Shown: positions 8,755 through 59,722, counted from the stretch's first letter. The stretch: DNA of 64,000 nt from Chthoniobacter flavus (GCA_945871065.1 CAMBUL010000005.1:1011-65010); one strand, 5' to 3'. Numbers and translations: made by a program. Notes: generated from the sequence alone by a model not told the origin.

Positions 8755-8755
8755 C

Positions 8756-9786: not shown

Positions 9787-9836
9787 GCAAGAGAAAATGC
9801 CTCCTCATCGCCCCTGCGGTGGGTTGAAATAAAGAA

Positions 9837-13590: not shown

Positions 13591-13652
13591 GCCTTGAGGA
13601 GAATATGTGTCTCGACGTGAAGCACGCAATCGTGCAATTCCCCGCCCTCCGC

Positions 13653-41031: not shown

Positions 41032-42858
41032 TCAGTCGCGGGCCAGAAACCGACGCCGATACTCCTCTGCTCCCGGCATCCTGGGTTGCCCGTCTTTCCT
41101 CATCAAGCAATCGCCGACCACAAGGACATCCATGTCCGTGAACATGAAACAACGGTAGGCATCACCCGGGGAATGCACGATCGGCTCACCGCGGATGTTG
41201 AAACTTGTGTTAACCAGCAGGGGGCAGCCGGTGCGACGCTCGAAGGCGCTGAGAATGGCGTGGAAGCGGGGGGAGCGGTCCGCGCTGACCGTTTGCACCC
41301 GGGCTGAATGGTCGACGTGAGTGACGGCCGGAATATCGCTGCGCGCCGCTTTGAGCCTTTCGAAACCGTGGAGTTTGTCGTTTTCCGGGGCAAGACGCGC
41401 ACGCCGGTCCGGGCGGACCTGCGCGACAAGGAGCATGTAGGGACTCTCCGCGGTCATCTCGAAATACCCGGACTGGCGGCCTTCCAGCACCGCGGGGGCA
41501 AAGGGACGGAATGACTCTCGGAATTTGATGGCCAGATTCATGCGCCTTTGCATATCCGGATCGCGCGGATCACCGAGCAGAGAACGATGACCGAGTGCGC
41601 GGGGACCGAATTCCGCGCGACCGGAGAAGTGACCCACGATCTTCCCCTGAGCCAACTCGGCCGCGATTTCTTCGGCCAGATCTTCCTCCTTGGCATAAAC
41701 CTCGTAGGCCGCGTGCACGGCATCGAGTTCCTCCCGCACCGCTCGTGAGGTGAATTCCGGCCCGAGATACGACCCCCGCTGGGAATCCTCCCGCTTGGGG
41801 CGGCGTGGATTATCCTGCACTTGGTACCAGCACCACAATGCGGCACCAAGTGCTCCTCCGGCATCGCCGGCCGCCGGCTGGATCCAGATGTTCTCAAAAA
41901 GCTCTTCACGGAGAAGGCGGCCATTGGCGACGCAATTAAGGGCGACTCCACCGGCCAGACAAAGATTCTGCAACCCGGTCGCGCGGCGGACATGACCCGC
42001 CATCTTGAGGACAACATCTTCGGTCACCACCTGTATGCTCGCCGCCACATCCATGTGGCGCTGAGCCAACTTTTCGTCCGGCTTCCGGGGCGGCCCGCCG
42101 AAAAGCGCGTGAAAGCGGGCATTGGTCATGGTCAGGCCCTCGCAATAATTAAAAAACCGCTGGTCCAACCGGAAAGAACCATCGTCCTTGATCTCGATGA
42201 GATGCTCGCGAATCAGGTCGGCAAAGCGCGGTTCGCCATAAGGAGCAAGGCCCATGAGTTTGTACTCACCCGAATTGATCTGGAATCCGCAATAAGAGGT
42301 GAAAGCGCTGTAGAGCAGCCCGAGAGAATGGGGAAAGCGGATTTCAGCGCGCAGTTCAATCCTGTTGCCCCGCCCGACCCCCCAGCTGGTCGTCGTCCAC
42401 TCCCCCACCCCATCCATCGTGAGAATGGCTGCCTCCTCGAACGGGCTGGGAAAAAAGGCGCTCGCCGCGTGCGCCTCGTGGTGGCTGCTGAAATAAATTG
42501 GGCCCGCGTAGTCGCCGCCCAAACCCTTGTCGATTTCTCGCGGCAGGTGCAGCTTGGTTTGCAACCACTGCGGCATGGCCCGAAAAAAGGAGAGGAGCCC
42601 GCGGGGGGCAACGGCGAGGTAAGTCTCGAGCAAGCGCTCGAACTTCAGCAATGGCTTCTCGTAGAAAACCACCGCATCCAAATCACCGTTCGTGATTCCG
42701 CCGGCTTCGAGGCAATAGCGAACCGCGCTTTCCGGAAACCGCTCATCGTGCTTCTTCCGCGTAAATCGTTCCTCTTGAGCTGCGGCCACAATCTCCCCGT
42801 CGCGCACCAGCGCGGCCGCGCTGTCGTGGTAGAAGGCGGAAATACCGAGGATATTCAT
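41032..42858 (-). CDS. carbamoyltransferase (NodU/CmcH family)
   Basis: The internal ATG at 42858 gives MNILGISAFYHDSAAALVRDGEIVAAAQEERFTRKKHD, the hallmark N-terminus. About 608 aa with the C-terminal YrdC-like-less carbamoyltransferase domain (NTSFNIRGEPIV). Confidence 0.85.
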   Translation of the reverse strand: MNILGISAFYHDSAAALVRDGEIVAAAQEERFTRKKHDERFPESAVRYCLEAGGITNGDLDAVVFYEKPLLKFERLLETYLAVAPRGLLSFFRAMPQWLQTKLHLPREIDKGLGGDYAGPIYFSSHHEAHAASAFFPSPFEEAAILTMDGVGEWTTTSWGVGRGNRIELRAEIRFPHSLGLLYSAFTSYCGFQINSGEYKLMGLAPYGEPRFADLIREHLIEIKDDGSFRLDQRFFNYCEGLTMTNARFHALFGGPPRKPDEKLAQRHMDVAASIQVVTEDVVLKMAGHVRRATGLQNLCLAGGVALNCVANGRLLREELFENIWIQPAAGDAGGALGAALWCWYQVQDNPRRPKREDSQRGSYLGPEFTSRAVREELDAVHAAYEVYAKEEDLAEEIAAELAQGKIVGHFSGRAEFGPRALGHRSLLGDPRDPDMQRRMNLAIKFRESFRPFAPAVLEGRQSGYFEMTAESPYMLLVAQVRPDRRARLAPENDKLHGFERLKAARSDIPAVTHVDHSARVQTVSADRSPRFHAILSAFERRTGCPLLVNTSFNIRGEPIVHSPGDAYRCFMFTDMDVLVVGDCLMRKDGQPRMPGAEEYRRRFLARD

Positions 42859-42960
42859 CAGATAGCAAAAATAGAGAGGGCCGGAAAACCGCGGCAAATC
42901 TACGGACAACCCTTCATCCGGGAGATTCTTTGCGGCCTGCCGGCCCCTTGGGTTGCCAAA

Positions 42961-43916: not shown

Positions 43917-44318
43917 TCATAGCAACTTGTATGCCGCCACCGAAAGACCGGGCACCGCGGTAAAATGCGCCGGGTTTCGCGTCAAGACCGGCGCGTCCAG
44001 CACCGAGGCGGACGCCGCGATCCACAGATCAGGATAGTCGGGGGCTCTGCCCTTCCGGGCCATGGTCACCCAAAGATCGCAGTAGCGATCGATAGTGCGT
44101 TGATCCAGCGCCAAGCGGAGGAAGCCGCGGTAAAAAGATTCGAGAGCTTCCCGGCCGACGCCTTTGTGCAGCGCCCCGCGAGAAAACTCGGCTTCCGTGA
44201 TCCAAGGCACCACCAACGATGCGCCCCGCGCCTTGCGCACCAGCTCCTCCAACCGCTGCGGCGTCCGGCGATGACGCCACAGGTCGATCAGCACGGTGGT
44301 GTCAGCAATCAGGTCCAC
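43917..44318 (-). CDS. vapC: type II toxin VapC (PIN domain ribonuclease)
   Basis: 133 aa with PIN acidic residues in MDLIADTTVLIDLW... and a C-terminal ...LTRNPAHF. It overlaps the upstream antitoxin gene by 10 nt. Confidence 0.8.
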   Translation of the reverse strand: MDLIADTTVLIDLWRHRRTPQRLEELVRKARGASLVVPWITEAEFSRGALHKGVGREALESFYRGFLRLALDQRTIDRYCDLWVTMARKGRAPDYPDLWIAASASVLDAPVLTRNPAHFTAVPGLSVAAYKLL

Positions 44319-45018: not shown

Positions 45019-45561
45019 TCAAAGATACTCCGCCATCTCGTAAAGCTGCGGATCCCGCCGCGGCGGCAGCCGGCGACGCAAGGCCCCCGCGGCGCCTTTT
45101 TCTCCCTCGCCCTTCCCCATCCCGAAATCCCCCATCGAATCCTCGTCGAGCACATCGCCGTATTCCGCTTCGAGCTTTTCCGGATCCTCGCCTTTTTCCA
45201 TGCGCGCCAGCATTTCAAGCATCGGCTCGGGCATTTTTTCGCCGGTGATGTCCATCATCTTGCGCATCATGCGCCCCAGTGCGCGCGGGTCCGGATTTTC
45301 CTCATCCATACCGGACATTTCGCCGGCCAGCTTCATCATTTCCGCTTCCTGCCGCGGATCGAGATCCGGCATGCCTTCGCCACCGGGTTCCTCTGTCTTT
45401 TCTTTGGCCCGTCCCGTGATGGCAAATGGTGAGAGCACACGATCCATCTTTTGCCCTTCACCCTCGGGACAGCGCGGCACGACATCCGGACCGACCAGCT
45501 TGCGAGCGTAGAAGCTATAAATCTTGTGCGTATCAGCGGAGTAATATTCGTAAATGGGCAT
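45019..45561 (-). CDS. hypothetical acidic Met/Glu-rich protein with a degenerate FmdB-type zinc-ribbon N-terminus
   Basis: MPIYEYYSADTHKIYSFY...PRCPEGEG resembles the MPxYEYxCxxCG start of the FmdB family, but the first Cys pair is missing. The rest is low-complexity. Confidence 0.4.
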   Translation of the reverse strand: MPIYEYYSADTHKIYSFYARKLVGPDVVPRCPEGEGQKMDRVLSPFAITGRAKEKTEEPGGEGMPDLDPRQEAEMMKLAGEMSGMDEENPDPRALGRMMRKMMDITGEKMPEPMLEMLARMEKGEDPEKLEAEYGDVLDEDSMGDFGMGKGEGEKGAAGALRRRLPPRRDPQLYEMAEYL

Positions 45562-45570
45562 GGGGACGAC

Positions 45571-45663
45571 TAGGGATGTAGGAGGAGACCTGAAACCTGA
45601 GTGATATTGCAGCGGCCGGAGGCCGATAACTTCTTACTCAAGTCTCCGACTCAAGTTTCAGCC
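45571..45663. repeat. ~90-nt intergenic repeat element, copy A
   Basis: Colinear with 55201-55290. Matching blocks are AGGGATG.AGG; GAGACCTGAAAC.TG.GT (16 of 19); a central GC hairpin; and a 26-nt block ACTCAAG.CTC..ACTCAAGT.TCA (21 of 26). Confidence 0.7.
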
Positions 45664-46029
45664 TTGGTTCCTTTGTTTCGTGTTCTTCGACATCGTGACA
45701 AAGATTCGAATCAGCTCATCGGCTTCAGTCCAGACTTTTTCGAGTTCGTCTGAATTCAGCCCGCAATCGTCCCGGAGCAATTCCAGCCAATACTGCGTCT
45801 CGTCGGCCTCTTGGGCGCACAACTCGATCTTGGCAACAAACTCGCTGTCGCTGCGCGCTTTCGAGGCCTCACGGTAATTCGCTCCGACCGAGGTCCCAGC
45901 TCGAAGCATCTGCTTGCCCAGAACGCGCAGTTCCTCCCTCTTTTTATCAAGCGAAACAAAGAACCGCACGACCGAACCCCCGAACCGTTTGGTACGGACC
46001 CGCATTTCATCACTTTTAGACGCGCTCAA
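45658..46029 (-). CDS. four-helix-bundle protein (23S rRNA intervening-sequence protein / Avd-like family, TIGR02436-type)
   Basis: GKQMLRAGTSVGANYREASKARSDSEFVAKIELCAQEADETQYWLELL matches the family signature. The start may instead be the M at 46005. Confidence 0.8.
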   Translation of the reverse strand: MSASKSDEMRVRTKRFGGSVVRFFVSLDKKREELRVLGKQMLRAGTSVGANYREASKARSDSEFVAKIELCAQEADETQYWLELLRDDCGLNSDELEKVWTEADELIRIFVTMSKNTKQRNQG

Positions 46030-46038
46030 CTGCCTTGC

Positions 46039-46064
46039 ACTCAGCTTTCCGACTCAAGTCTCCG
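46039..46064. repeat. 26-nt block of the intergenic repeat, partial copy C
   Basis: ACTCAGCTTTCCGACTCAAGTCTCCG matches 45636-45661 at 21 of 26 positions and overlaps the rmlB stop codon. Confidence 0.6.
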
Positions 46065-47130
46065 CCTTCTCCGCCAGTCCTAATCTTTCCCGCCCGTAGC
46101 TGCGTTCCTCAACCGCCTGGCACCACGTGTTGCTAGCTAGATACCATTCGACCGTGCGGCGGATGCCGGATTCGAAGGACTCGGACGGATTCCAACCCAA
46201 TTCGCGGGTCAGTTTGGAGAAATCCATGGCGTAGCGCAGGTCGTGGCCTGGCCGGTCGGTGACAAAAGTCTTCAGCCGAGTATGCGGGCCAGCCGGATCC
46301 GGACGCAACTCGTCGAGGAGCGCGCAAATCGTATCAACCACATCGATGTTCATCTTCTCCGCCGCACCCCCGATATTGTAGGTCTCCCCGAAGACCCCAC
46401 CTTGCAGCACCGTCCAGATGGCCCGGCAATGGTCTTCGACAAACAGCCAATCACGGATGTTCTCTCCTTTGCCGTAGATGGGCAGCGGCTTACCCTCGAT
46501 CGCATTGCGGATGATCAGCGGGATAAGCTTTTCCGGGAATTGGTAAGGCCCGTAGTTGTTCGAGCAATTCGTCGTCACCACCGGCAGCTTGTGCGTGTGG
46601 AACGCCGCCCTCACCAAAAAGTCACTCGCTGCTTTGCTCGCCGCATAGGGACTGTTCGGTGCGTAGGGGGTATGCTCCGTAAAGGCCGCGTCTCCCGCCT
46701 GCAGGGTACCGTAAACCTCGTCCGTGGAAACATGGAGGAACCGGAACTTCGTCTTCCGCTCATTTCCGAGGTCCTTCCAGTAGCCGCGCACCGCATCGAG
46801 CAACCGCTGAGTTCCAAGAACATTCGTAGTGATAAACGGCTCCGGCGAGTCAATCGAACGATCCACATGCGACTCGGCGGCGAAATTGAGGACGGCGTCA
46901 ATTTGGTTTTCGCGCAATAACTTGGCCACGAGCGCGGCATCTCTGATGTCGCCTTCGACAAACACGTGCCGCGAATCCCCGTCGAGGTCGGCCAGCGAAC
47001 CGCGGTAACCCGCGTAGGTGAGCAAATCTAGATTGACCAGTTTTCCAACTTTCCACCCGGGGGATTGCAAGGCCAAGCGGACAAAGTTTCCTCCGATAAA
47101 TCCGGCGCCGCCGGTGATGAGGAGATTCAT
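46054..47130 (-). CDS. rfbB: dTDP-glucose 4,6-dehydratase
   Basis: The internal ATG at 47130 gives MNLLITGGAGFIGGNFV. YAASKAASD (YxxxK) is present, and similarity to RmlB is visible end to end. The last ~7 codons run into the repeat block. Confidence 0.9.
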   Translation of the reverse strand: MNLLITGGAGFIGGNFVRLALQSPGWKVGKLVNLDLLTYAGYRGSLADLDGDSRHVFVEGDIRDAALVAKLLRENQIDAVLNFAAESHVDRSIDSPEPFITTNVLGTQRLLDAVRGYWKDLGNERKTKFRFLHVSTDEVYGTLQAGDAAFTEHTPYAPNSPYAASKAASDFLVRAAFHTHKLPVVTTNCSNNYGPYQFPEKLIPLIIRNAIEGKPLPIYGKGENIRDWLFVEDHCRAIWTVLQGGVFGETYNIGGAAEKMNIDVVDTICALLDELRPDPAGPHTRLKTFVTDRPGHDLRYAMDFSKLTRELGWNPSESFESGIRRTVEWYLASNTWCQAVEERSYGRERLGLAEKAET

Positions 47131-47180
47131 AAGAAAAGCAACATGTGGATCCGTGACGAGACAGGTCAACCAACGCGGTC

Positions 47181-50100
47181 CTAACTTACCGCAGCCAAAC
47201 GAAGCACACGCCACGCGGCTTCGAGTGAGATGGCCGTGGACATCTTCGAGTCTCCCTCGCGGCGCTCGGTGAAGACGATGGGGACTTCTTTAATCGTGAA
47301 GCCCTGCTTCCACGCGGTGTGGTGCAGTTCGATCTGGAAGGCGTAGCCTTCGGCTTGGACCTTGTCCCAATCGAGATCGCGCAGGACGTCGGCGCGGATC
47401 GCTTTGAATCCGCTCGTCGGGTCGCTCATGGGGAGTGCGGTCAGTGTCCTCACATAAAATCCACCGAACGTGCTGATGAATAGCCGGCTCTGCGGCCAGT
47501 TGAGCACCGAGATGCCGCCGAGGTAACGCGAACCAACCGCGAGGTGGGACCCCTGCTCTAGGGCCTCGAGCAGCTTGGGAATGTCTGTCGGGTCATGCGA
47601 GAGATCGGCGTCCATTTCGACTGCCGCCTGGTAACCGTTTTTGACCGCCCATTGGAATCCACGGCGGTAAGCCGTGCCCAACCCCGCCTTACCTTTACCC
47701 TCGAGCAGGAAAATGCGCTTATTGAACTCGGGGCGGGCGCGAACCACGCCCGCGGTGCCGTCCGGCGACCCGTCATCAACGACCAGAACGTCCGCCTGAC
47801 GCGGGAGTCCGAGGACTAAGTCAATCGCCTTGTTAATCGACTCGCGCTCGTTGTAGGTCGGAATAACCACCACCACCTTGTCAATAGTCCCGACCGGCGG
47901 GGTGATCAGGAGAGTCTGCTTGTTCGCTCCGGTCCACCAATCCTTCCACCGCTTAGGAATGAAAGGCAAGGGCATGATGAGCAACATGCCGAGCACACCG
48001 GCCCACGAAAGGCCGGAAATCCAAACGGCAAGGTCATACCAGCGCGGAGGCGAGAAGACGAATTCGATCGCGCCATTGGTCCGCCCGAGGGGCACGGCCA
48101 TAAGTCCGCCAAAGGCTTTGAAAATCGGAATCTGCGTACCGTCGGAGTAGGCGCGCCAATCCGGGTGCCATGCTTCGGTCACCACCAACCATCCTTCGCG
48201 CGTTCCGAAGGGATCGAAGGACATTCTGGACGGATCTTTCCGCGGCGTGCTGAAGGACACGCGCTGGAACGGAGCGCCCGGACCCTGCGCGTATTTCTGG
48301 GCAATTTGGATTCCGTTTTGCGTCGACCCCGTGCCGGCAAGGAACGGAAAATTGCGTTCGTTCGGTCCGAGTTCGAGCGGCACCGCATTGATTCGTCCTG
48401 CTGCATCAAGAAAGCCCGGCGCCAGCGCCTCCGTGTCCGGGTCCATCGCAATGTATTCCCGCGCGACAAAGGCCGGCGCCAGCGAGTCCTTGTTCTCCAG
48501 CACCCGGATGTATTCCGAGTCGAACCCCGTCGGATAAGCTTGGGCGAAGGCGTTCTGAATCTCCGGTGGCGTGAACGGATCCTTCTTGTCCAGCAGCACA
48601 TGCGAAATCCCCGCCACCCGCATATAAGTCTGCATGGCCCCCGGCGACGAGTTGGCCCCATTGACCAGCCCCCGGATCCCCCGCATCTGGAAATGGCTCC
48701 ACGCTGCCTCGCTATTGATCCCCCGCCCCGACTGCATCGGCGTGCGCAGGTAAAAATACCGTCCGGACATCGGATAGACGCGGCCTTCGATGAGTGATGT
48801 CTTTAAGAAGTCCTGTGAACGATCGAAATCAGTAAAGGTCTGCGCCGGGAGGCCTGGCGCAAAAAACTTCGAAAAATAAGCCGAAGAATCGAGCAAAAGG
48901 ATCACGCCGAGCAGACCAGCGACAACGAGCCGGTCACGCTTCTCGATCAACGAAACAAAAAGCTGCTGCAAAGCAAGCGCCCCCGCCACCGCACCAGCAA
49001 AGAAGCCTACCTCCCAGAAGCCCCACGGTGCACGGATGTCGCGATACATCGGTAACTTCTCCAGCAGCACAAACCCCGGTACGAAAAGGTAGACTAAGAT
49101 GAGCACTGTGGCCCAGATCCCGCGCCGCGGACCCGCCGGCAAAAGGGCATAGATGAGAAAAAACGGGATGAAAGTCATCAACCACATCAACGCCGCAATC
49201 CAATCCGGCGCTTTTTGTGAGCCCTTGAGAAATTCCTGCACCCCGGTGAAGACCGAAAACGGCCCCTGCGAAAGCCACAGCGCCAGCAGCGTCATCCCGA
49301 CAAACAACCGCAGCAGCACGCCATTACGCGTCGCCAGCCACTCCGAGTGCCTGCGCGACCACCAGAACACGGCCCCTACCGCGAACAATGTCACCAATCC
49401 GAGATAAAACTGTCCGCGATCCGCCACAAAATCCGGCCGCATATTGGCGAACAAGCCATTGGCCCGATCGAGCACGGAGGTAAAGTTCTTCAAAGAAAAT
49501 GCCTGCTGCCAGCCAGCGAAGTTGTCGAAAGAAAACGCCGAGACCCACTGGTACTCTCGCGTCAGAGGCAGCAACAGGATAACCGCCATCAAACAAACCA
49601 ACACCAGAGAAACCAGCGTGCCTCTGACGAGAGCGACCCGTCGCTCCGGCTGATCGAGCAAAAGCCAAACAAAGAAGACAGCCGCCATTGGCGCGAACAT
49701 GAAAGTCAGCTTTGCATACGACAGCATCATCGCCGACCAACCGAAGGCCAACCACGCAGAGGCCCGCCAGGAACCCTCCCCGGCAACTTTGAGGAACGCC
49801 CACAAAATCAGCGGCGGGAAGATGTAGGAGTAGCTCCCCATCCAATGCTCGAAGTTGCCGATACGGACGAGCATCTGGCCGCTTAAGACATAGAAAACGG
49901 CGGCAATAGCTCCCGTCCACTCGTTGGACGTGAGCCTCCTCGCGAAGAGGAACATCGTCAGCGCCGCGAGCGGAATGATGAGCAATGCGGCAATTTTGAT
50001 GCCCGCCGGGTCCCCAAAGACAGCCGAACTCATAATACCACAGATCAACGGAACTGCGCAGAGCGCGAAGTTCGCCATGGAATGCCCCTGCATGAAGTTG

Positions 50101-50312
50101 GCGCTCCACCACGGGATGCCGTCGGTCGTCCGGAAGTTGTGCACGACTTCGTTCAAAAACCGTCCCCCCCCCCCATACAACTCCTCTTGAGACGGAGTCT
50201 GCGACAACCAACCGAAGCCTAAGACCACGCAATAGAGCGCCACAAATGTGGCAAGGAAGATCTTGGCCGAGTTTGCCCCAGCGTGCGCTTTGGGTGTGGA
50301 TTTAACTAACAT
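47181..50312 (-). CDS. fusion: YfhO-like GT-C polytopic membrane glycosyltransferase domain + C-terminal polyprenyl/dolichyl-phosphate mannosyltransferase-type GT2 (Ppm1/DPM1-like)
   Basis: 1043 aa. Residues 1 to ~790 comprise many TM helices, a ~280-aa soluble segment ending with the YfhO-type pattern TEAWHPDWRAYSDGTQIPIFKAFGGLMAVPLGRTNGAIEFVFSPP, and a last TM. Residues ~800-1043 carry VVVIPTYNERESI, VVDDGSPDGT, EMDADLSHDP, GSRYLGG, DPTSGFK, GYAFQIE and PIVFTERREGDSKM. Confidence 0.75.
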   Translation of the reverse strand: MLVKSTPKAHAGANSAKIFLATFVALYCVVLGFGWLSQTPSQEELYGGGGRFLNEVVHNFRTTDGIPWWSANFMQGHSMANFALCAVPLICGIMSSAVFGDPAGIKIAALLIIPLAALTMFLFARRLTSNEWTGAIAAVFYVLSGQMLVRIGNFEHWMGSYSYIFPPLILWAFLKVAGEGSWRASAWLAFGWSAMMLSYAKLTFMFAPMAAVFFVWLLLDQPERRVALVRGTLVSLVLVCLMAVILLLPLTREYQWVSAFSFDNFAGWQQAFSLKNFTSVLDRANGLFANMRPDFVADRGQFYLGLVTLFAVGAVFWWSRRHSEWLATRNGVLLRLFVGMTLLALWLSQGPFSVFTGVQEFLKGSQKAPDWIAALMWLMTFIPFFLIYALLPAGPRRGIWATVLILVYLFVPGFVLLEKLPMYRDIRAPWGFWEVGFFAGAVAGALALQQLFVSLIEKRDRLVVAGLLGVILLLDSSAYFSKFFAPGLPAQTFTDFDRSQDFLKTSLIEGRVYPMSGRYFYLRTPMQSGRGINSEAAWSHFQMRGIRGLVNGANSSPGAMQTYMRVAGISHVLLDKKDPFTPPEIQNAFAQAYPTGFDSEYIRVLENKDSLAPAFVAREYIAMDPDTEALAPGFLDAAGRINAVPLELGPNERNFPFLAGTGSTQNGIQIAQKYAQGPGAPFQRVSFSTPRKDPSRMSFDPFGTREGWLVVTEAWHPDWRAYSDGTQIPIFKAFGGLMAVPLGRTNGAIEFVFSPPRWYDLAVWISGLSWAGVLGMLLIMPLPFIPKRWKDWWTGANKQTLLITPPVGTIDKVVVVIPTYNERESINKAIDLVLGLPRQADVLVVDDGSPDGTAGVVRARPEFNKRIFLLEGKGKAGLGTAYRRGFQWAVKNGYQAAVEMDADLSHDPTDIPKLLEALEQGSHLAVGSRYLGGISVLNWPQSRLFISTFGGFYVRTLTALPMSDPTSGFKAIRADVLRDLDWDKVQAEGYAFQIELHHTAWKQGFTIKEVPIVFTERREGDSKMSTAISLEAAWRVLRLAAVS

Positions 50313-50327: not shown

Positions 50328-51164
50328 TCAGAGGCTGGTAAGGAAACCTGTCAAAGTGTCCGAAGACGGTGAAAATCTCCAGCGAGAACAGTCGGATGGC
50401 GCGGCAATGCCCAAAGTTCCGAAATTCGGTACGGGATCAAAAAGGTCGGATCCTCCGAGTTTGTCCGCGTGGACCAAGCTCTCGGAGACCCCCAGCACTG
50501 AGGCCAACCTACGGGCTGCAGCGAAGTAGGAAAAATCGCGGTCTCCCGAGATGTGGAAGGTTCCGGACCGGAAATTCCGAGCCAACTCCGCAAGGGCTAC
50601 GCAGACCTCGACGAGTGGAACAGGGGAAAAAGGGAGCTCTGAAGACGCGGAGACATTGCGCCCCGCGAGCAAACTTTCTTTCCACGTCGCAAAACGCGGC
50701 CCGAGCGTCTCGACCACTTTTGTCAGGCGAACGCAGGCGAATTGCGGCCCCTTTAGCTTCTCCTCCATGCGGGCTTTTTGCCGCCCGTATTCGCAACACG
50801 GCCTCAAGGAATCGCCAGCCGTCGGGAACGGTAGCCTGCCGTCCGAAACCAAGTTCGTGGAAAGCGCAATGACCGATCCTCCAGCAGCGGCGATTTTTTG
50901 CGCGATTTCAACCGCACCCTCGACATTGATCCTCGAGGTTCCCATTGGATCATCCGCGCACTCCCTCAAACCGCCAATTCCTGCGCAGATGACGGCCGTC
51001 TTCACATTTTGCGGAACAGCAAAAGATTCCGGCTGCTCCAAGTCCAGAATGACCGCATCGCGTCGCTGTTTGCGGCTGGTGCCAACCACGGTTTCGCCCG
51101 CCTCAGCCAAAAACCGGCACAGGGCACCGCCGATCAGCCCATCAGTTCCGACGACGAGAATCAC
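50328..51164 (-). CDS. NAD(P)-dependent sugar epimerase/reductase (extended SDR, RmlD-like)
   Basis: MILVVGTDGLIGGAL Rossmann start and YGRQK (YxxxK); 278 aa. Confidence 0.65.
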   Translation of the reverse strand: MILVVGTDGLIGGALCRFLAEAGETVVGTSRKQRRDAVILDLEQPESFAVPQNVKTAVICAGIGGLRECADDPMGTSRINVEGAVEIAQKIAAAGGSVIALSTNLVSDGRLPFPTAGDSLRPCCEYGRQKARMEEKLKGPQFACVRLTKVVETLGPRFATWKESLLAGRNVSASSELPFSPVPLVEVCVALAELARNFRSGTFHISGDRDFSYFAAARRLASVLGVSESLVHADKLGGSDLFDPVPNFGTLGIAAPSDCSRWRFSPSSDTLTGFLTSL

Positions 51165-52333
51165 AAGGCGTCGAGCAGTTTGACCGCGTGAAAACGCGCA
51201 GCGGCGTCGCGATATTTTCCGGCTAACCGCTTGGAAACTGCCGGCGCCATACCGACGAAGACATCCGAGCCTTCCGCAGCGTCACCCGGGGATATAATCG
51301 GGATGCCGAGATGCTTTGCCCCGATGCGGCTCGGATCTTCATCGACGAAAAACTCCACCTCCATATCGGGAGCTCCCGCCAGCCATGTGCCCGCCACTGC
51401 CGTGCCGAAAATGCCGAAGTTGGCGGCGTTCTGACGGAGGGCTTGCGCTTGGTGCCTCACCCCCCGCAACCAGGACAGTCGTTCATCCAGTCGCGATTCG
51501 ACCTCCTCGTCCGCTTTGTTACTCGCAGTGCAATCGCCGCCCGCTCTGGCCAGAAGGGTGAGCTCTTTCGGAACCACTTGACCCGGGGTCACAACCGGCT
51601 CCCATCCCGCCCTACGCGCCACCCGCTCGAGAATCGCGGGGGTAAAGTGGGTGGCGTGATCGGCGATCGCCAAAGCGAAAGGGTTCTCCGACCAGTCCGG
51701 CACCTGAACGAGCAACAGCGCGCCATTGCGCGCACGGCGTCGCAATGCCTCGAGGCACGCCACCGGGTCCTCGATGTGTTCTAACACGTGAACCATCGAT
51801 ATAGCGTCATATTCACCCGATAACTTATCGAACCGCGCCGTCTGGAGCCCCTTGAACCGCGGTAACTGCTGCAACATTCGCGCGTTGCGGTCGTCGAACT
51901 CCGTACCGCTCAGGCTCCACTCCTGGAACTGACCTGTAAACTCGCGCAAGAAAGCTCCCCGCCCGCAACCGACATCCAGCACCTCGCCTCGGGGCGACAA
52001 AAGACCGAGCGAAGCCAGCCATCCGATGATAACGCGCGACCGCGCACTCATTCCATCGCTATCAAGTACTTTTTGTTCCTCGCCACCTGCTGCGGCATAA
52101 GTGTCGTAGTCACGGTAAATTTTTTCCACGCTCCCACGCCATGCTTCGTTGATTGGCGCCTGCACCGCGCTGCAGGCAGGGCACACGAAAATCCGCACCT
52201 TTTCGTTCCATGGCCGGCAATCCGAGGTCACTCCCGATTCAAGCGAGTAAATCGCCGCGGTTGTTCCGGCTTCTGCCGAGCAGTGGTGACACTTCAAGGT
52301 TTCGCAATCCATCGCCTTCCTTCCGTCATCCAA
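51161..52333 (-). CDS. class I SAM-dependent methyltransferase with N-terminal zinc ribbon and C-terminal extra domain (NDP-sugar C-methyltransferase-like architecture)
   Basis: CHHCSAE...CPACSAVQ zinc ribbon, LDVGCGRGAFLREF motif I, and a ~120-aa C-terminal domain. Confidence 0.7.
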   Translation of the reverse strand: MDDGRKAMDCETLKCHHCSAEAGTTAAIYSLESGVTSDCRPWNEKVRIFVCPACSAVQAPINEAWRGSVEKIYRDYDTYAAAGGEEQKVLDSDGMSARSRVIIGWLASLGLLSPRGEVLDVGCGRGAFLREFTGQFQEWSLSGTEFDDRNARMLQQLPRFKGLQTARFDKLSGEYDAISMVHVLEHIEDPVACLEALRRRARNGALLLVQVPDWSENPFALAIADHATHFTPAILERVARRAGWEPVVTPGQVVPKELTLLARAGGDCTASNKADEEVESRLDERLSWLRGVRHQAQALRQNAANFGIFGTAVAGTWLAGAPDMEVEFFVDEDPSRIGAKHLGIPIISPGDAAEGSDVFVGMAPAVSKRLAGKYRDAAARFHAVKLLDAL

Positions 52334-53336: not shown

Positions 53337-53884
53337 GCGCCAACTCTCTCCGTCCCTCCAAACTCCCCTGCCCCCGATGGACTGAAGTGCAACTTCCTCG
53401 TTTTGGCCGGGAAATCAGGCCGGCCGAGGAACTCGGGCAAATCATCGATGAACACGTCACAACCTAGGGCAGTGATTCGCGCGGCTTTGTCGGCGGCAGT
53501 CTCCTCGAGAAAAACAGAAGCCAATCGATCAATACCCCGATCACGAACCCATTTTTGGGCCGCGGCATGCAGATCGACCGGATCGCCAAGAAACGGCTGC
53601 TTGGTTCGGTGACTGACAATACAGAGTGCGTGGCCGCGATCGCGCGCGCAGGCCATGAATTCAAGCGCGCCCTCGAACGGCTGTGCTCTATCCATTCGCG
53701 ACCCATAGGCCTTTCCCTGCATCAATGTCCACTCGTCCTCGCGATTTTGCTGCCTCAAATAATCCCGAATAGCCTGTTTACCGGCCGAAGCCACATGCCC
53801 AGGCAGCTCAAGCTCCGAGGCGAGACGCTCGAACACCCCGTCGTAGCAGACAATGGTATTATCAAGATCGATCCCGATCAGCAT
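53300..53884 (-). CDS. HAD-superfamily hydrolase/phosphatase
   Basis: DxDxT motif at the N-terminus (MLIGIDLDNTIV), SHRT, and a C-terminal FIDD. Confidence 0.7.
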   Translation of the reverse strand: MLIGIDLDNTIVCYDGVFERLASELELPGHVASAGKQAIRDYLRQQNREDEWTLMQGKAYGSRMDRAQPFEGALEFMACARDRGHALCIVSHRTKQPFLGDPVDLHAAAQKWVRDRGIDRLASVFLEETAADKAARITALGCDVFIDDLPEFLGRPDFPAKTRKLHFSPSGAGEFGGTERVGAWEDVARLLLDQ

Positions 53885-54651
53885 TGTCCGTAAAGGGTCT
53901 TGGAGATCCGACGAATGGCGACGTTTTGCAGCGAGTGAGCAACCGACGCCAGATTTCGCATGGTCAGTGCTTTGGATTCGCCCGTCAGTCGCTCGTTCCC
54001 GTAGACCGGCACTTCCTCGTAGGTCAGGTTTTTGGAGAGCAAGCGAGTCAGTAGGTCCGCCTGGAATCCAAAACCGTGCGAATTCGAGTGCCAGCGGCGG
54101 ACGTAATCGGTGCGCGTGACAAGCAGCCCGTTGTAGTAATGCATCCGATAGCCGCTGATCGCGTTGACCAAAGCCGTGTAGGTTTTCGAAAGCAACCGAC
54201 GAAAGATGCCACGTCCACGAATCTCCACCGTGTAGGGAACCACGACTTCGGTCTTCCCCACCGCCTTGAAGATGGTTTCGAGCGTCTCGACTGGTTCGAC
54301 ATTGTCACCGCAGATCATGCGATACCACTCGCCCTTGGCTCGGAAGGCCGCCTCAGCATAGTTGTTGGCCACGCCCTCATTGTGTCCGTTGAGTAACAGG
54401 CGCACAGGCAACTCTGGATGCTCAGCCATGAACTTCCTGACGCGCGGCACAGTCTCATCCTTCGATGCGTCGTCGACAACGATGATGTCGAATGACGGCA
54501 CCGTCTTCCGCAGGGCTTCAACCAGCGTTTCAAGGGTGCCAATGATGTTGTCTTGCTCGTTGTAGCAGGCGACAAAAAGACTCAAAAACACAGGAGGCTT
54601 CAGCGCTGCCGCCGCAGGCGTCGCTTCTTCCTTGGGACCGAAGGGTATCAT
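53878..54651 (-). CDS. glycosyltransferase family 2
   Basis: LSLFVACYNEQDNI and IIVVDDASKDET; 257 aa. Confidence 0.8.
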   Translation of the reverse strand: MIPFGPKEEATPAAAALKPPVFLSLFVACYNEQDNIIGTLETLVEALRKTVPSFDIIVVDDASKDETVPRVRKFMAEHPELPVRLLLNGHNEGVANNYAEAAFRAKGEWYRMICGDNVEPVETLETIFKAVGKTEVVVPYTVEIRGRGIFRRLLSKTYTALVNAISGYRMHYYNGLLVTRTDYVRRWHSNSHGFGFQADLLTRLLSKNLTYEEVPVYGNERLTGESKALTMRNLASVAHSLQNVAIRRISKTLYGQC

Positions 54652-55193
54652 GGCGCCGAATCAAACTCGCTTTCGCGTCGTAGGACGAACTTTTTCAAGC
54701 CGAAAACCATCTTGGCGACTGGAACCAAGCGCGGGTTCACCAGCTTCCAGCGTCCATTTTCCCGGATGACGTCCCCACCCTCGAGCAAACGCTGGAGCCG
54801 CGCCTCTTTGATCAGCTCGTCGTCGTAAACCGCGCGCAATTCCTCGCGGGTGATGAATCCGCCGCGGTCGTCGCACTCCTTGAAGATGCGGATGCGGATC
54901 GACGCGTGCCCCAGGTTGATAAAGTTGTAAAAGCAGTACGCCAGCATCACGTAAATGGCCGGATTGGCGACGAGCGCCAGAGCCCAGCGGTCCAAATTGC
55001 GCGGAAATACCAGCAGCAACACTGCCTGAAGAGCAAGCACAACCAGCAGACCGACGACAAGTCCGACGACAACCGAGCCAAAAAACTGCTCACCGCGGCG
55101 CAGACGCAGAACGACCGCCTGGACCACGACCATCACCGCCAAAGCCACAATCGGGCTCAGCAAATAAAACCATTCGGGAAAAATAGCTGACAT
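54648..55193 (-). CDS. hypothetical membrane protein (3-4 TM + ~70-aa cytoplasmic C-terminal domain), paralog of 55303-55827
   Basis: The start was taken at ATG 55193 (MSAIFPEWFYLL); the ORF extends to 55235. It is colinear with, and weakly similar to, the neighbouring gene product. Confidence 0.5.
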   Translation of the reverse strand: MSAIFPEWFYLLSPIVALAVMVVVQAVVLRLRRGEQFFGSVVVGLVVGLLVVLALQAVLLLVFPRNLDRWALALVANPAIYVMLAYCFYNFINLGHASIRIRIFKECDDRGGFITREELRAVYDDELIKEARLQRLLEGGDVIRENGRWKLVNPRLVPVAKMVFGLKKFVLRRESEFDSAP

Positions 55194-55200
55194 TGTGGAA

Positions 55201-55290
55201 GAGGGATGAAGGCTGAGACCTGAAACTTGGGTCAAATAAAGGCAGCTGGAGGCTGGAGCAACTCACTCAAGCCTCAAACTCAAGTCTCAT
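55201..55290. repeat. ~90-nt intergenic repeat element, copy B
   Basis: See copy A. It lies between the two paralogous membrane-protein genes, 8 nt upstream of the start codon at 55193. Confidence 0.7.
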
Positions 55291-55302: not shown

Positions 55303-55827
55303 TTACCCCCCGGATTTGATCGGGCCGAAGACAATCCGCCGGTAGCCTAGGATGACCCGGAAAAATAGATATCGTCCCGCCGACAAACGGTAACCGCTCT
55401 GTTCCTCAATGAAGACGTTGTCTGTCACCAACGCCTTCACGCGCGCCCCTACGAATGGCCGCTGACGGAAGAACTCCTCGATTTCGTCATGCGAAATCCC
55501 TTCGGAGCCCCTCCGATGCAAGTGACGCGTGAGACTCAGCGTCGGACTATCTCCCTCCATTGCGGAGTAAGTGATCACGTAGCAGAACGCAGCCACCCAG
55601 TAGAACAAAGCGAAATAGAGCCATGCAAGCCAAGGTGCGGTTCCCTCATCACCAAACCCGATCCAAGACGAATGCATCGCGACCGCCACCGTCGCCCCGG
55701 CAAAAAACACCATAAAGATCATCAGCAACGCCTTGAGCTGATGCACCGGCACCCGCAACCGCCACAGGCCTAGGTGAAAGAGAAATGCAGCCAAAAGTGT
55801 GGCCACCATCAGAAACAAGACAATCAT
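55303..55827 (-). CDS. hypothetical membrane protein (4 TM + ~70-aa C-terminal domain), paralog of 54648-55193
   Basis: 174-aa ORF with strongly hydrophobic N-terminal two-thirds. The C-terminal part (ISHDEIEEFFRQRPFVGARVKALVTDNVFIEEQSGYRLS) aligns by eye with ITREELRAVYDDELIKEARLQRLLEGGDVIRENGRWKLV. Confidence 0.5.
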   Translation of the reverse strand: MIVLFLMVATLLAAFLFHLGLWRLRVPVHQLKALLMIFMVFFAGATVAVAMHSSWIGFGDEGTAPWLAWLYFALFYWVAAFCYVITYSAMEGDSPTLSLTRHLHRRGSEGISHDEIEEFFRQRPFVGARVKALVTDNVFIEEQSGYRLSAGRYLFFRVILGYRRIVFGPIKSGG

Positions 55828-56268: not shown

Positions 56269-57333
56269 TTACCCACCACTTTTTGAGGTCGTGGATGGAT
56301 CCGGATTCAGGCAACCGGCGTGGGAACTGGCGGTCCCCCCATAGACAGCTTCCACGATGTAGAGAGGACGCAATTTGACCGCCTCATACATTCGTCCGGT
56401 GTATTCGCCGATCACTCCTAGCGCGAGGAGCTGCACCCCGCCGAAGAAGATAACGGTAATCATCATGGCCGGGAAACCAGGAATGAAAAAGCCCGGGTTA
56501 ACCAATTTGATCACAAAGACAATGCCCGCGGCCACGAGCGCGAGGAGAAGGATTCCCAGCGCGAGACAGGTAACGAGCCGCAATGGCACGATGGAGAAGG
56601 ACGTGATCGCGTCGATGGCGAAAGAGATCATTTTTGCGTAGGGATACTTCGACAGCCCGGCAAAGCGGGATTCCCTGTCATAGTAAACCGGCACTTGCAC
56701 CCCGCCGATCCATGCGACCATGCCGCGGATAAACCGGTGCTGTTCTCTCATGCCCCGCAGCACCTTGACCACCCGGCTGTCCATCAGCCGGAAATCACCC
56801 GTGTCCTCAGGGATATGGGTCTTGGTGAGACAGCGCATGAGGCGGTAAAAGGCTCCGGCGGTGAACAACTTCAAGCCCGTCTCCCCACTGCGGTGACGAC
56901 GTTTCCCGTAAGCAACGTCGGCCCCCTTCTCCCACTCTGCCACCATCTCAACAATGACCTCGGGCGGGTCTTGGAGGTCGGAATCGATCAGAACGACAAT
57001 GTCACTTTCCGTGAGATCAAGGCCCGCAGTGACTGCAGCTTGGTGGCCGAAATTGCGCAGGAGATTAACGACTCGAATGCAAGGATCGGCGGCCGCAAGT
57101 GATTTTGCGACTGCCAACGTGCCGTCTCGACTGCCGTCATTAACGAGCAGTATCTCGTGCCGACAGCCGAGAGCAGCGAGCACCTGCTTGGTCCTGCGCG
57201 CGAATTCCGGCAAGCTTTCCGCCTCATTATAGCAAGGCACGACGACGGAAAGTGTCGCCTCGCGTATTGCTCGAGGTGCGCTGTTCAAGGGCGGGAGGGG
57301 CGCGGCCGGCGGCCGACGATGGCGACGTTCCAA
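56269..57333 (-). CDS. polyprenyl-phosphate glycosyltransferase (GtrB/ArnC-like GT2 with two C-terminal TM helices)
   Basis: LSVVVPCYNEAESL, LVNDGSRDGT and DSDLQDPPE, plus C-terminal TM helices (FSIVPLRLVTCLALGILLLALVAAGIVFVI; VIFFGGVQLLALGVIGEY). Confidence 0.8.
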   Translation of the reverse strand: MERRHRRPPAAPLPPLNSAPRAIREATLSVVVPCYNEAESLPEFARRTKQVLAALGCRHEILLVNDGSRDGTLAVAKSLAAADPCIRVVNLLRNFGHQAAVTAGLDLTESDIVVLIDSDLQDPPEVIVEMVAEWEKGADVAYGKRRHRSGETGLKLFTAGAFYRLMRCLTKTHIPEDTGDFRLMDSRVVKVLRGMREQHRFIRGMVAWIGGVQVPVYYDRESRFAGLSKYPYAKMISFAIDAITSFSIVPLRLVTCLALGILLLALVAAGIVFVIKLVNPGFFIPGFPAMMITVIFFGGVQLLALGVIGEYTGRMYEAVKLRPLYIVEAVYGGTASSHAGCLNPDPSTTSKSGG

Positions 57334-58481
57334 CTAAGCGGACGAAGAAAAGGCAGCCACTGGAACAGTTTCCGATCGATCGCTTCGAGGGGCCGGTAGA
57401 TCCGCGCCCACTGGTCGGCCTCATCAATAACCTTTTTCCAGTAGCGCTCCTTGTTCGGGCTTCTGCCTTGCCCCACCGCCATCCAGATGAAGACGAGAAG
57501 CGTCGTGAGCCAGAACCAGCGAACCTCGGCCTGCTCGAACCGGCTAGCGATGGCGCGAACATCACGCAGGCGGAGGGGGTGTTCGTCCGGAGTTCGCACC
57601 TTGGTGGCCAAGGCGCGGTACAGGTTGATGACCGGGTTATATGCCACCGGGTCCCAACTGACAAAGACACCGCCGAGTTTAAGATGTGGAAGCAGTTGAT
57701 CCATCATAGCTTCGATGTCTGCGTGGTGAAGTGTGTTCCCGGTGTAGATGATGTCGAACTGACGATCATGAGGCAGCCCAAGGTCTTCCACCGCGGAGAC
57801 ATGAGTGCGGAGGTTGACTCCGTTGAGTCCTGCGAGCTTTTGAGCCGTGGCGCACATGCCCGGAGAGATGTCGGTCGCAGTCACAGCCGCCCCTTCCAAG
57901 GCGAAATAGACGCTTGCCTCGCCCAGGCCGCAGCCGACATCAAGAAGTTCACGACCACCGAGATCCCCAAGCACGGAACGGATGTGGCGCATCTCCGGAG
58001 CTGTGCATGCCTCGTTGCGACGCCGGATATCGATGGAGGCCACATCCTCACTAGCGGCCCACTCATCGTGAAAATTCTCCTCGGCCAGCTTTCGCCGCTC
58101 GTCGCACGCGGCAGAAGCGCCCCTAGTCGGGAGCCCGGACGCTTTCAGCATGCTTAGAAGCTCCGAATCGAAGAAACTTCGATTAGCCTCCATAACGCGA
58201 TCATCTGCGAAAAGCTGGCCGACAGCCTCTTGATTGACGGCATGCGTGGCCGAGTCACCCCGGGTGTAGAAGCGGGCGGACTTGAGAGTGACGATATGTT
58301 CACCCGGCTGGGGAAAGGTCCAACAGACGCGAACCTGTCTTGGGGCGGGTTGGTCGAAGGCCAACGCCGACATCCAGCGAGCGACTGAATCCGCTTCATT
58401 CCGTGGCAGCCTGTGCTGCAGACGCCAACCGGCAGCGGATAGCTGGTGGACGGCACTTTCGTACAGAATTTTTTTGGGCAT
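57285..58481 (-). CDS. class I SAM-dependent methyltransferase with C-terminal membrane segment
   Basis: LLDVGCGLGEASVYFALEGAAVTATDISPGM motif I/II and a C-terminal hydrophobic stretch RWFWLTTLLVFIWMAVG. Confidence 0.7.
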   Translation of the reverse strand: MPKKILYESAVHQLSAAGWRLQHRLPRNEADSVARWMSALAFDQPAPRQVRVCWTFPQPGEHIVTLKSARFYTRGDSATHAVNQEAVGQLFADDRVMEANRSFFDSELLSMLKASGLPTRGASAACDERRKLAEENFHDEWAASEDVASIDIRRRNEACTAPEMRHIRSVLGDLGGRELLDVGCGLGEASVYFALEGAAVTATDISPGMCATAQKLAGLNGVNLRTHVSAVEDLGLPHDRQFDIIYTGNTLHHADIEAMMDQLLPHLKLGGVFVSWDPVAYNPVINLYRALATKVRTPDEHPLRLRDVRAIASRFEQAEVRWFWLTTLLVFIWMAVGQGRSPNKERYWKKVIDEADQWARIYRPLEAIDRKLFQWLPFLRPLSWNVAIVGRRPRPSRP

Positions 58482-58486
58482 GCCGG

Positions 58487-59722
58487 TCAGTGGGTCGCAG
58501 CCATTTCCAAGGAGCGGCTTTGGCCTGGCAACTCGATGCGTTCCCTCCTCTCGTTGCGGATCCGCTCCGCGATTTCAACCAGCTTCTCGTAGGTGAAAGG
58601 CCATTTCTTGACCGGCGGTGCGGCGAGGAAAAGCTTCACGCGATCCCACTTGGCGGCAAGGTAGCGCATGGCGATCGTCATCTCGGGATAACTGCCGAAC
58701 ATGCATCCTTGGCAGGCCTTCGTCACCCGCAACACCTCGTCACGAAAAACCTTGTCACGGTAGATCTTGGGGAAATCGGCGTCGTAAGTGTGGATCTGCG
58801 AGGGGATGCGGTGGTCGCAACAAGGAGCAAAGTCCCCGTTTGGCAGGACGGCAAAATAAAGATTTGGGCTGTCGCAGACCCCCGCATTCTTCTGCCTCCA
58901 AGTTGTGGGGTCTCCAGCCGCGAAGCGCTTGACGTCATCAAGGTATTGGTCGCTGTCGTAGAGCAGGAACCCTTCGTGCCGCATGGCACGCACTCGCTCT
59001 ACCAAAGTGTTGACATAGGGCAACTCGTCAGGGCGCCATCGTTTGGTCTGGTCGAAAGAACGGAAGCTCATGGGTTTGTCGAAAGTCGTGAGATGGATCG
59101 GCACCAGCGAGGTGAACCAACTGATCTGGGTGCCGAACCGGATGACATCCTCGACGTCGCCTAGGTTGTCGCGCTGGAGCACGCATCCCAGGGAGGCGAA
59201 ACTTCCCTCCTTTGGCAGGAACTGGGTGAAAGAAGCCATGGCTTGGAGCGCGTCATGCCAGGATTTCGTGAATCCACCATTGATTTCATCCTGATTGCCC
59301 GGCCAGAGAGAATCCAAGGATATCGAAATGTCGCGGCCGCCAGCTTCTATGACTTGCTGTATGCGTTCATGCGTGGCAAGGCCGTTTGTCTGCATGCGAA
59401 CATGGACTCCCCTGCTGGTGAACGCACGGATGATCTCGGGCAGATCAAGGCGTGTGAAGGGTTCTCCTCCAGTGAGCAAGACCATCGCCACCCGCATGCG
59501 GGCGAAGTTGTCCGCGATGCGTTTGATCTCATCCAAGGTGCATTCCCGGACGTCGGAATTTGCGTAAATGATGTTGCATTGCTGGCAGGTCAGGTTACAG
59601 CGGGCCGTGATGTAAAACTGGACATAGACCGGGGCGTCCTGAACAAGGGCGGCACGGGCAAGCGTGAGCTTTGAGGAAACAGGGAACATTGGAGGCACTA
59701 CGGTCGCATCGCGAAACGCCAA
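58487..59722 (-). CDS. radical SAM protein with Cys-rich C-terminal (SPASM/twitch-like) extension
   Basis: CNLTCQQCN (CxxxCxxC), GGEPF, and later cysteines (GVCDSP...FAPCCDH...KACQGCMFG). Confidence 0.8.
   Translation of the reverse strand: MAFRDATVVPPMFPVSSKLTLARAALVQDAPVYVQFYITARCNLTCQQCNIIYANSDVRECTLDEIKRIADNFARMRVAMVLLTGGEPFTRLDLPEIIRAFTSRGVHVRMQTNGLATHERIQQVIEAGGRDISISLDSLWPGNQDEINGGFTKSWHDALQAMASFTQFLPKEGSFASLGCVLQRDNLGDVEDVIRFGTQISWFTSLVPIHLTTFDKPMSFRSFDQTKRWRPDELPYVNTLVERVRAMRHEGFLLYDSDQYLDDVKRFAAGDPTTWRQKNAGVCDSPNLYFAVLPNGDFAPCCDHRIPSQIHTYDADFPKIYRDKVFRDEVLRVTKACQGCMFGSYPEMTIAMRYLAAKWDRVKLFLAAPPVKKWPFTYEKLVEIAERIRNERRERIELPGQSRSLEMAATH

Follow-up and report, generated by a model that had tools for sequence, protein, structure and literature searches.

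A conserved fusion of a YfhO-like GT-C domain with a predicted DPMS/Ppm1-type polyprenyl-phosphate glycosyltransferase in Chthoniobacter flavus

Introduction

Can the enzyme that makes a lipid-linked sugar and the enzyme that spends it be parts of one polypeptide? O-antigens, teichoic acids, lipid A and proteins are all modified by three-component glycosylation systems. To our knowledge, it is poorly understood how the lipid-linked monosaccharide passes from the synthase in the cytoplasm to the GT-C glycosyltransferase, which faces outward, and which agent flips it across the membrane. In this regard, we analysed a 64,000-nucleotide (nt) stretch of Chthoniobacter flavus DNA (GCA_945871065.1 CAMBUL010000005.1:1011-65010), referred to below as the window, in which one gene on the minus strand joins a large GT-C membrane domain to a cytoplasmic GT2 domain of the type found in dolichylphosphate mannose synthase (DPMS) and mycobacterial Ppm1. 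This GT-C::DPMS-type fusion is a one-polypeptide variant of a normally multi-protein surface-glycosylation system, and we consider it probable that the protein works as a bifunctional inner-membrane glycosyltransferase that unites two components of a three-component extracytoplasmic system.

Results

The fusion is a single, widely conserved reading frame

An earlier note on this DNA had described a single open reading frame (ORF) of 1043 amino acids (aa), and both the ORF listing and the translation agree with it: the frame runs over 47181-50312 on the minus strand, starts with ATG and contains no internal stop. The protein is laid out as follows, with the evidence for each part in brackets.

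48861-50312 (-), residues 1-484: polytopic GT-C core of about 13 helices (AlphaFold2 helices with a predicted local distance difference test score, pLDDT, mostly >90; Foldseek; conservation in 110 sequences; hydropathy)
48045-48860 (-), residues 485-756: extracytoplasmic mixed alpha/beta domain ending in a YfhO-type motif (Pfam YfhO match, AlphaFold2 secondary structure)
47976-48044 (-), residues 757-779: last transmembrane (TM) helix, which takes the chain back to the cytoplasm (hydropathy peak at 761-779, AlphaFold2 helix at 757-779)
47877-47975 (-), residues 780-812: basic cytoplasmic linker, the fusion junction (K+R content, AlphaFold2)
47184-47876 (-), residues 813-1043: cytoplasmic GT-A/GT2 domain of the DPMS/Ppm1 type (Pfam, PDB sequence and fold matches)

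A search of ~5.8 billion proteins returned 131 homologues of the fusion protein, more than 110 of which are full length (1018-1064 aa, 55-100% identity) and come from NCBI, ENA, JGI and Logan assemblies. A profile built on the first 800 residues picked out 1878 relatives (E<=1e-3; 116 at E<=1e-30) from 1.84 billion representatives of 50% identity clusters. The best 150 of these include about 27 full-length representatives (980-1080 aa) with the same C-terminal GT2, and Pfam places a C-terminal GT2 on P0148 and P0135 as well (labels beginning with P denote proteins, those beginning with L loci of relatives). About as many proteins are unfused, 750-830 aa long, and end shortly past the last TM helix, by 20-30 residues in the homologues P0115-P0120.

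The fusion is a single continuous ORF in the six Verrucomicrobiota loci L002-L006 and L008. At L007:7884-11101, which belongs to one metagenome-assembled genome, the two parts lie in different frames as overlapping ORFs, which would reflect a frameshift error or else a recent fission. From an alignment of 110 sequences, AlphaFold2 modelled the whole chain, junction included, at a mean pLDDT of 94.1 and a predicted template modelling score (pTM) of 0.88, the latter suggesting that the relative placement of the two domains is confident; this run was used instead of one with a 5-sequence alignment, which gave a pLDDT of 51.

That the gene merely joins two adjacent genes through an assembly or frameshift error, as the split frames of L007 might hint, is effectively refuted by the same continuous ORF in >110 independent clusters from four data sources, by the six continuous genome loci and by a junction modelled at pLDDT >80. 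Continuity of the frame at the junction, on which the earlier note depended, is thus supported by >110 full-length homologues, ~30 representatives of 50% identity clusters and the six loci, and a survey of domain architecture gave the same layout in the >110 clusters and ~30 distant representatives. The fusion is real, conserved in many Verrucomicrobiota and uncharacterised, and an assembly artefact is excluded. Databases hold hundreds of copies, the whole protein being named 'dolichol-phosphate mannosyltransferase' at JGI; no description of a GT-C::DPMS fusion was found in a literature search of incomplete coverage.

The C-terminal domain carries the DPMS signature

The Pfam GT2 family (PF00535, Glycos_transf_2) matches residues 815-980 with 87.9 bits against a gathering score of 23.3 (E=9.5e-25). 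By sequence, the closest PDB entry is the Pyrococcus furiosus DPMS (PfDPMS, 5mlz; E=1e-26, residues 812-1036), followed by ArnC at ~4e-8. By fold, Foldseek again ranked 5mlz first (E=4e-12); the first matches were the DPMS structures 5mlz, 5mm1 and 9ep0, then ArnC and GtrB. The best ten are DPMS and ArnC, and GtrB appears from rank 13, mixed with AftD matches to the N-terminal part. DPMS, ArnC and GtrB are all polyprenyl-phosphate glycosyltransferases.

We then aligned the domain with PfDPMS (chain numbering = native numbering + 22), taking the residue roles from PMC5526996, in which R117, R131 and S135 are the acceptor-phosphate triad conserved in bona fide DPMSs. The correspondences, PfDPMS residue first, are:

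E12: E822
D39: D847
D89/D91, DXD motif: D901/D903 (D901-A-D903)
H94 of the DADLQH motif: H906
R117, R131, S135, acceptor-phosphate triad: R929, R943, S947
R202, K208, A-loop: R1017, K1023

All of these mapped residues are invariant in 18 of 18 fused relatives (36-82% identity), which upholds the claim that a complete GT2 domain with the DPM1/Ppm1 motif series is present. Helices 941-958 and 1026-1042 are counterparts of the two DPMS interface helices, and the domain has no TM helix of its own. From its homology and its conserved residues, the C-terminal domain is predicted to be a DPMS/Ppm1-type polyprenyl-phosphate glycosyltransferase, and the sugar that it handles is probably mannose, which is our best guess.

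The N-terminal domain is a divergent YfhO-like GT-C

Neither sequence nor profile search of the PDB returned a match for the N-terminal domain. With the AlphaFold2 model as the Foldseek query, the best match was AftD (6w98; E=2e-9 over ~900 alignment columns at 12% identity), with further GT-C matches to STT3 (8b6l_I, 8agc_A; ~2e-7) and DPY19 (~1e-6). These matches bear out the GT-C assignment of the earlier note, and the relation to YfhO that it proposed is seen through profile matches in the family: YfhO (PF09586) matches 27 of 53 family representatives at E<=1e-3, with a best E of 2e-10, compared with 6 for PTPS_related and 3 for PMT_2, and about half of the close homologues have a precomputed PF09586 match.

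In the protein itself, PF09586 matches only residues 705-757, at profile positions 775-827 of 835, and the score of 23.1 bits lies below the gathering score of 28.5. Two relatives lie above the threshold (L075 with 40.9 bits, L046 with 29.5 bits). Therefore, we treated the N-terminal domain as a divergent YfhO-like GT-C and not as a certified Pfam member. The match also confirms that the extracytoplasmic segment ends with the YfhO-type pattern, which comprises EAWHPDWRAYSDGTQIPI (residues 713-730) and GAIEFVFSPP (residues 747-756), followed by the hydrophobic helix 757-779. Within it, EAWHPDW (713-719) and FVFSPP (751-756) are the YfhO-type motif pieces; W719 is invariant, and P717 and P756 are nearly so.

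Polar residues conserved throughout the family are E44, K106, R150, E155, H156, K201, E253, D282, R283, R427, D475 and E535. E44 lies 8 residues past TM1, in the first external loop of the GT-C core (37-78), and is E in 84% of 110 sequences and D in 12% of unfused ones. Since members with and without the fusion keep these polar residues to the same extent, the GT-C domain does not look like a decayed anchor, which argues from sequence conservation that it is catalytically competent in the fusion.

Charge distribution supports the proposed topology from residue 221 onward

Clusters of K+R occur family-wide at residues 1-17, 222-230, 320-329, 391-397, 455-461 and 780-812. The last of these is the linker, which has ~6 K+R per 33 residues across the family, a short amphipathic helix at 787-794 and an AlphaFold2 pLDDT of 81-83. 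By the positive-inside pattern, loops 257-305, 348-369 and 419-436 and the domain 485-756 are predicted to lie outside the cytoplasm, and both the linker and the GT2 domain within it, helix 757-779 being the pass by which the chain returns. From residue 221 onward, this analysis supports the claim that the final TM helix makes the topology self-consistent.

Relatives keep the two parts as neighbouring genes

Stand-alone orthologues of the GT2 domain are widespread (45-54% identity). At eight Gemmatimonadota/Latescibacterota loci, a GT-C gene of the family (profile hidden Markov model E of 1e-29 to 1e-36) lies a few kb from a stand-alone GT2 (45-51% identity). The GT-C gene precedes the GT2 gene on the same strand at seven of the eight; at the exception, L063, they lie on opposite strands ~3 kb apart. 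An RmlD gene stands between the two at L046, and at L048, L050 and L066 the two frames, scanned stop-to-stop, abut or overlap. In a rough neighbour-joining tree of the GT2 domains, nearly all fused domains fall in one clade; in the GT-C tree, fused and unfused domains are interleaved. This suggests an old fusion with repeated fission, and some 'unfused' gene calls are possibly truncated. Functional coupling of the two domains would be in keeping with these genomic patterns.

Two other candidates for split partners were set aside. The 247-aa GT2 of L001 aligns with the fused GT2 over only 71 residues and is instead the orthologue of a small GT2 in the window, described below; the 244-aa gene upstream of the unfused P0150 at L082 is not a DPMS-type GT2.

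Members of the GT-C family were also found in another kind of fusion. In P0224, P0258 and P0262 (~1550-1600 aa), the YfhO-like GT-C is fused to a second GT-C, a TMEM260-like/PMT_2 O-mannosyltransferase, plus TPR repeats, and at L082:759-6070 the GT-C and TMEM260-like genes are adjacent with a 4-nt overlap. Such fusion to, or adjacency with, a TMEM260-like O-mannosyltransferase fits a polyprenyl-P-mannose donor.

The fusion gene lies in a surface-glycan gene row

In the window, the fusion gene is part of a tightly packed co-directional gene row. The neighbours that bear on its function are:

50328-51164 (-): divergent RmlD-like short-chain dehydrogenase/reductase (SDR), upstream with a 16-nt gap (Pfam RmlD_sub_bind E=5.8e-19; TIGR01214 62.8 bits against a cut-off of 224)
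46054-47214 (-): RmlB, dTDP-glucose 4,6-dehydratase, downstream; the listed ORF overlaps the 3' end of the fusion gene by 34 nt (TIGR01181 474 bits against a cut-off of 365)
53878-54651 (-): small TM-less GT2 of 257 aa (Pfam GT2; weak full-length similarity to ArnC and DPMS)
56269-57333 (-): GtrB-type polyprenyl-phosphate glucosyltransferase with C-terminal TM helices (E=2.6e-88 to Synechocystis GtrB, sll0501, 5ekp, over residues 26-332)
54648-55235 (-): small membrane protein, by eye with about three hydrophobic segments and a soluble tail
55303-55827 (-): second small membrane protein, of the same appearance by eye

The RmlD-like SDR is a conserved neighbour in close relatives, with a homologue at L086 and a similar gene near P0120, and RmlB is also found near the fusion gene at L084. 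The small GT2 is a conserved operon member in fused and unfused relatives, with orthologues at L001 and L086 beside haloacid dehalogenase (HAD) and aminoglycoside phosphotransferase (APH) kinase genes; it may be a second candidate lipid-sugar synthase, and the GtrB orthologue is a third candidate in the cluster. At L086 the gene order shared with the window comprises the small TM protein, the small GT2, HAD, the APH kinase and the RmlD-like gene, the small TM protein being the homologue of that at 54648-55235. In the more distant Verrucomicrobiota loci L002-L008, synteny past the fusion gene is not conserved.

The two small membrane proteins match no Pfam or NCBIfam family and show no detectable similarity to each other, so that calling them flippases is not possible. 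In relatives, genes with an LPG_synthase_TM domain (the MprF flippase type) accompany the system: directly upstream of the fused orthologue at L086 (5883-6995, 6-nt gap), upstream of the unfused GT-C at L001 (6992-7969), and between the GT-C and GT2 genes at L075 (8195-9241) and L042 (4559-5833). The protein of these relatives is a candidate flippase for the lipid-linked sugar. The sole LPG_synthase_TM gene of the window, at 13605-14618, lies 33 kb away in a ketosynthase/halogenase/AMP-ligase cluster, and as a partner of the fusion it was rejected as probably unrelated.

The surrounding cluster holds RmlA, RmlB, SDRs, four methyltransferases, a radical SAM enzyme, a carbamoyltransferase and GT2s. 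The radical SAM gene is at 58487-59722 (-); class-I methyltransferases at 57285-58481 and 59698-60576 are among three beside it, and the fourth methyltransferase, 51161-52333 (-), lies further downstream. The carbamoyltransferase is at 41032-42909 (-). This content suggests a glycan of the 6-deoxyhexose type that is heavily methylated and carbamoylated. At the head of the glycan gene row, a 512-aa protein (62431-63969, -) with an apparently polytopic membrane part and an apparently soluble C-terminal part has no Pfam match and could be a further GT-C-like enzyme or a polymerase. A second GT-C enzyme of the window, 689 aa long, is encoded at 33381-35450 (+) (Pfam PMT_2, 54 bits).

Three small ORFs between rmlA and rmlB break the sugar-gene row (43917-44318, 45019-45561 and 45658-46029, -); by eye they resemble PIN/VapC-like, zinc-ribbon-like acidic and four-helix 23S-rRNA intervening-sequence (IVP)-like proteins, and an IVP gene also follows rmlB at L084. 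Elsewhere in the window, 5581-8754 (+) encodes a 1057-aa fusion of MMPL with an LpxL-type acyltransferase. It adjoins ketosynthases, a halogenase-like flavoprotein, an AMP-ligase and the LPG_synthase_TM gene (9837-16075), and the region 5581-16075 looks like a separate lipid or aryl-polyene-type cluster.

Discussion

Proposed mechanism

Based on homology and conserved residues, the GT2 domain, held at the cytoplasmic face by the membrane domain, would transfer a sugar from a nucleotide sugar, most likely GDP-mannose, to polyprenyl phosphate, and the product would be polyprenyl-P-beta-mannose. The lipid-linked sugar would next be flipped to the outer leaflet, no flipping agent having been identified in the operon. 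In the periplasm, the YfhO-like GT-C domain, as its fold and conserved residues suggest, would use it to glycosylate an acceptor, which is likely the surface glycan built by the surrounding cluster. Fusion would hold the two activities at 1:1 and in one place, and would anchor the TM-less synthase.

The earlier note had gone further and proposed that the donor is channelled within a single protein. The producer-consumer part of this claim is plausible and is supported by the eight split-gene loci in other phyla; channelling was overstated, because the lipid-linked sugar must still cross the bilayer. The fusion does not bypass flipping, and channelling by a single protein is at best partial. 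A bolder version, in which the protein is a self-contained synthase-translocase-transferase and the GT2 product is passed to the GT-C membrane domain and moved across the membrane along it, seems improbable to us. If true, it would account for an operon with neither an LPG_synthase_TM nor a GtrA-type gene, unlike the operons of relatives, and would offer a single-protein model for the still unidentified flipping of dolichyl-phosphate mannose (Dol-P-Man) and undecaprenyl-phosphate (Und-P) sugars.

Alternative explanations

The fusion may instead serve mainly as an anchor or scaffold that tethers a TM-less DPMS-type synthase, its lipid-linked sugar joining a common pool for several GT-C enzymes and the YfhO-like domain perhaps being supplied by a different synthase, for instance the small GT2 or the GtrB orthologue. 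There are parallels in M. tuberculosis Ppm1 D1::D2, human DPM1 with DPM3, and GacJ-GacI. Mycobacterial Ppm1 has the same order of membrane domain then synthase and a patchy fused/split distribution, with a D1 that is not a consumer (PMC3485146), and natural GacJ-GacI fusions exist, active only with the membrane partner first (PMC10821137). Also in line with this explanation are the interleaving of fused and unfused forms in the GT-C tree, the unfused GT-C of L001 that adjoins a small GT2 and an LPG_synthase_TM gene and not a DPMS-type GT2, and the other GT-C candidates in the window. However, PfDPMS remains active and still finds the membrane when its TM domain has been cut off (PMC5526996), so that anchoring by itself would offer little selective advantage; the gene order GT-C then GT2 is met again in two other phyla; and the fused GT2 domains fall mostly in one clade, staying with the GT-C family. 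We therefore hold tethering as the chief role to be possible, though rather doubtful. It is quite unlikely that the GT2 domain is a common cytoplasmic GT2 enzyme elongating a lipid-linked or soluble glycan, with the GT-C acting independently: the GT2 family is very broad and NCBIfam equivalog thresholds are unreached, yet the triad R929, R943 and S947 and the A-loop residues R1017 and K1023 of bona fide DPMSs are all kept, and the best ten fold matches are DPMS and ArnC.

Several observations weigh against the bifunctional enzyme that we favour. In most cases (Bacteroidota, Ignavibacteriota and others), a stand-alone GT2 orthologue lacks a GT-C of the family within 8 kb, so this type of GT2 can serve other consumers. 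Because the operon contains two more candidate synthases, the small GT2 and the GtrB orthologue, exclusive pairing of the fused domains is not proven, and the small GT2, which is conserved beside unfused GT-C genes, could be the enzyme that actually supplies the donor. The genes on either side produce dTDP sugars rather than GDP-mannose, and no operon ORF matches a GtrA/GtcA-type flippase. Within the protein, the sub-threshold Pfam YfhO match is confined to residues 705-757; helix parity over residues 79-220 holds only if one of the six predicted helices does not span the membrane, most likely the segment 131-153, which is broken at 143-144; and two PfDPMS positions are replaced (Q93 by S905, K178 by A991). 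The GT2 domain also falls short of the NCBIfam equivalog cut-offs for AglJ, DPhHxTase_Halo, ArnC, PpgS and PgfS, its best score being 63.2 bits for AglJ against a cut-off of 325, with the others far under theirs.

Implications

A naturally fused synthase and GT-C would give a 1:1 complex open to cryo-electron microscopy and reconstitution. The fusion also serves as a 'Rosetta stone' that links a divergent, YfhO-like family of GT-C enzymes to a TM-less GT2 of the DPMS type that is widespread, and its conserved neighbours point to LPG_synthase_TM proteins as candidate flippases for lipid-linked sugars. In addition, it adds to the scant knowledge of surface-glycan biosynthesis in Verrucomicrobiota.

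Comparison with known systems

A functional parallel to the predicted scheme can be drawn with CsbB/GtcA/YfhO, which glycosylates teichoic acids in Bacillus subtilis, Staphylococcus aureus and Listeria (PMC8035078, PMC5836110). There too a cytoplasmic GT2 makes a C55-P-sugar and a YfhO-type GT-C transfers it outside, and the YfhO C-terminal motif and last TM helix are common to both. The system described here differs in that both enzymes would reside in one polypeptide, the GT2, which has no TM helices of its own, belongs to the DPMS/Ppm1 type and not to that of CsbB/GtrB, no operon gene matched the GtrA family of flippases while relatives have LPG_synthase_TM, and the host belongs to the Gram-negative Verrucomicrobiota, with marginal similarity to Pfam YfhO. 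GtrA/GtrB/GtrC and ArnC/ArnE-F/ArnT follow the same logic of synthase, flip and GT-C transfer, and in structure the GT2 domain matches ArnC and GtrB next best after DPMS; these systems consist of separate proteins, whose synthases carry their own C-terminal TM helices and whose GT-C enzymes belong to other families.

In domain order, the protein resembles M. tuberculosis Ppm1 (Rv2051c), in which a TM-less DPM-like polyprenyl-P-mannose synthase lies behind a polytopic membrane domain and whose two parts are adjacent genes in related species (PMC3485146). The earlier note was correct that actinobacterial Ppm1 is fused to a different membrane domain: mycobacterial D1 has six TM helices, is unrelated to GT-C and is not the consumer of the product (PMC3485146), whereas the membrane domain here is a GT-C transferase of ~14 TM helices, not of the D1/Ppm2 type, with its conserved residues intact. 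In GacI/GacJ and WpsA/WpsB, a TM-less DPM1-like GT2 likewise depends on, or is fused behind, a membrane protein, but this partner is a small three-TM activator and not a glycosyltransferase (PMC10821137).

As for the individual domains, AftD (6w98) is the best structural match of the N-terminal part, and in both a large GT-C core is followed by an extracytoplasmic domain; AftD, however, has carbohydrate-binding modules, uses decaprenyl-P-arabinose and is not fused to a synthase. The catalytic GT2 domain is 31-33% identical, in structural alignments, to PfDPMS (5mlz) and human DPM1/DPM2/DPM3, with which it shares the DXD motif, the acceptor-phosphate triad, the A-loop residues and the two interface helices. 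It differs in how it is attached to the membrane: the C-terminal TM helices of types I and III and the separate DPM2/3 partners of type II (PMC5526996) are both lacking, and an N-terminal GT-C enzyme of 14 helices takes their place.

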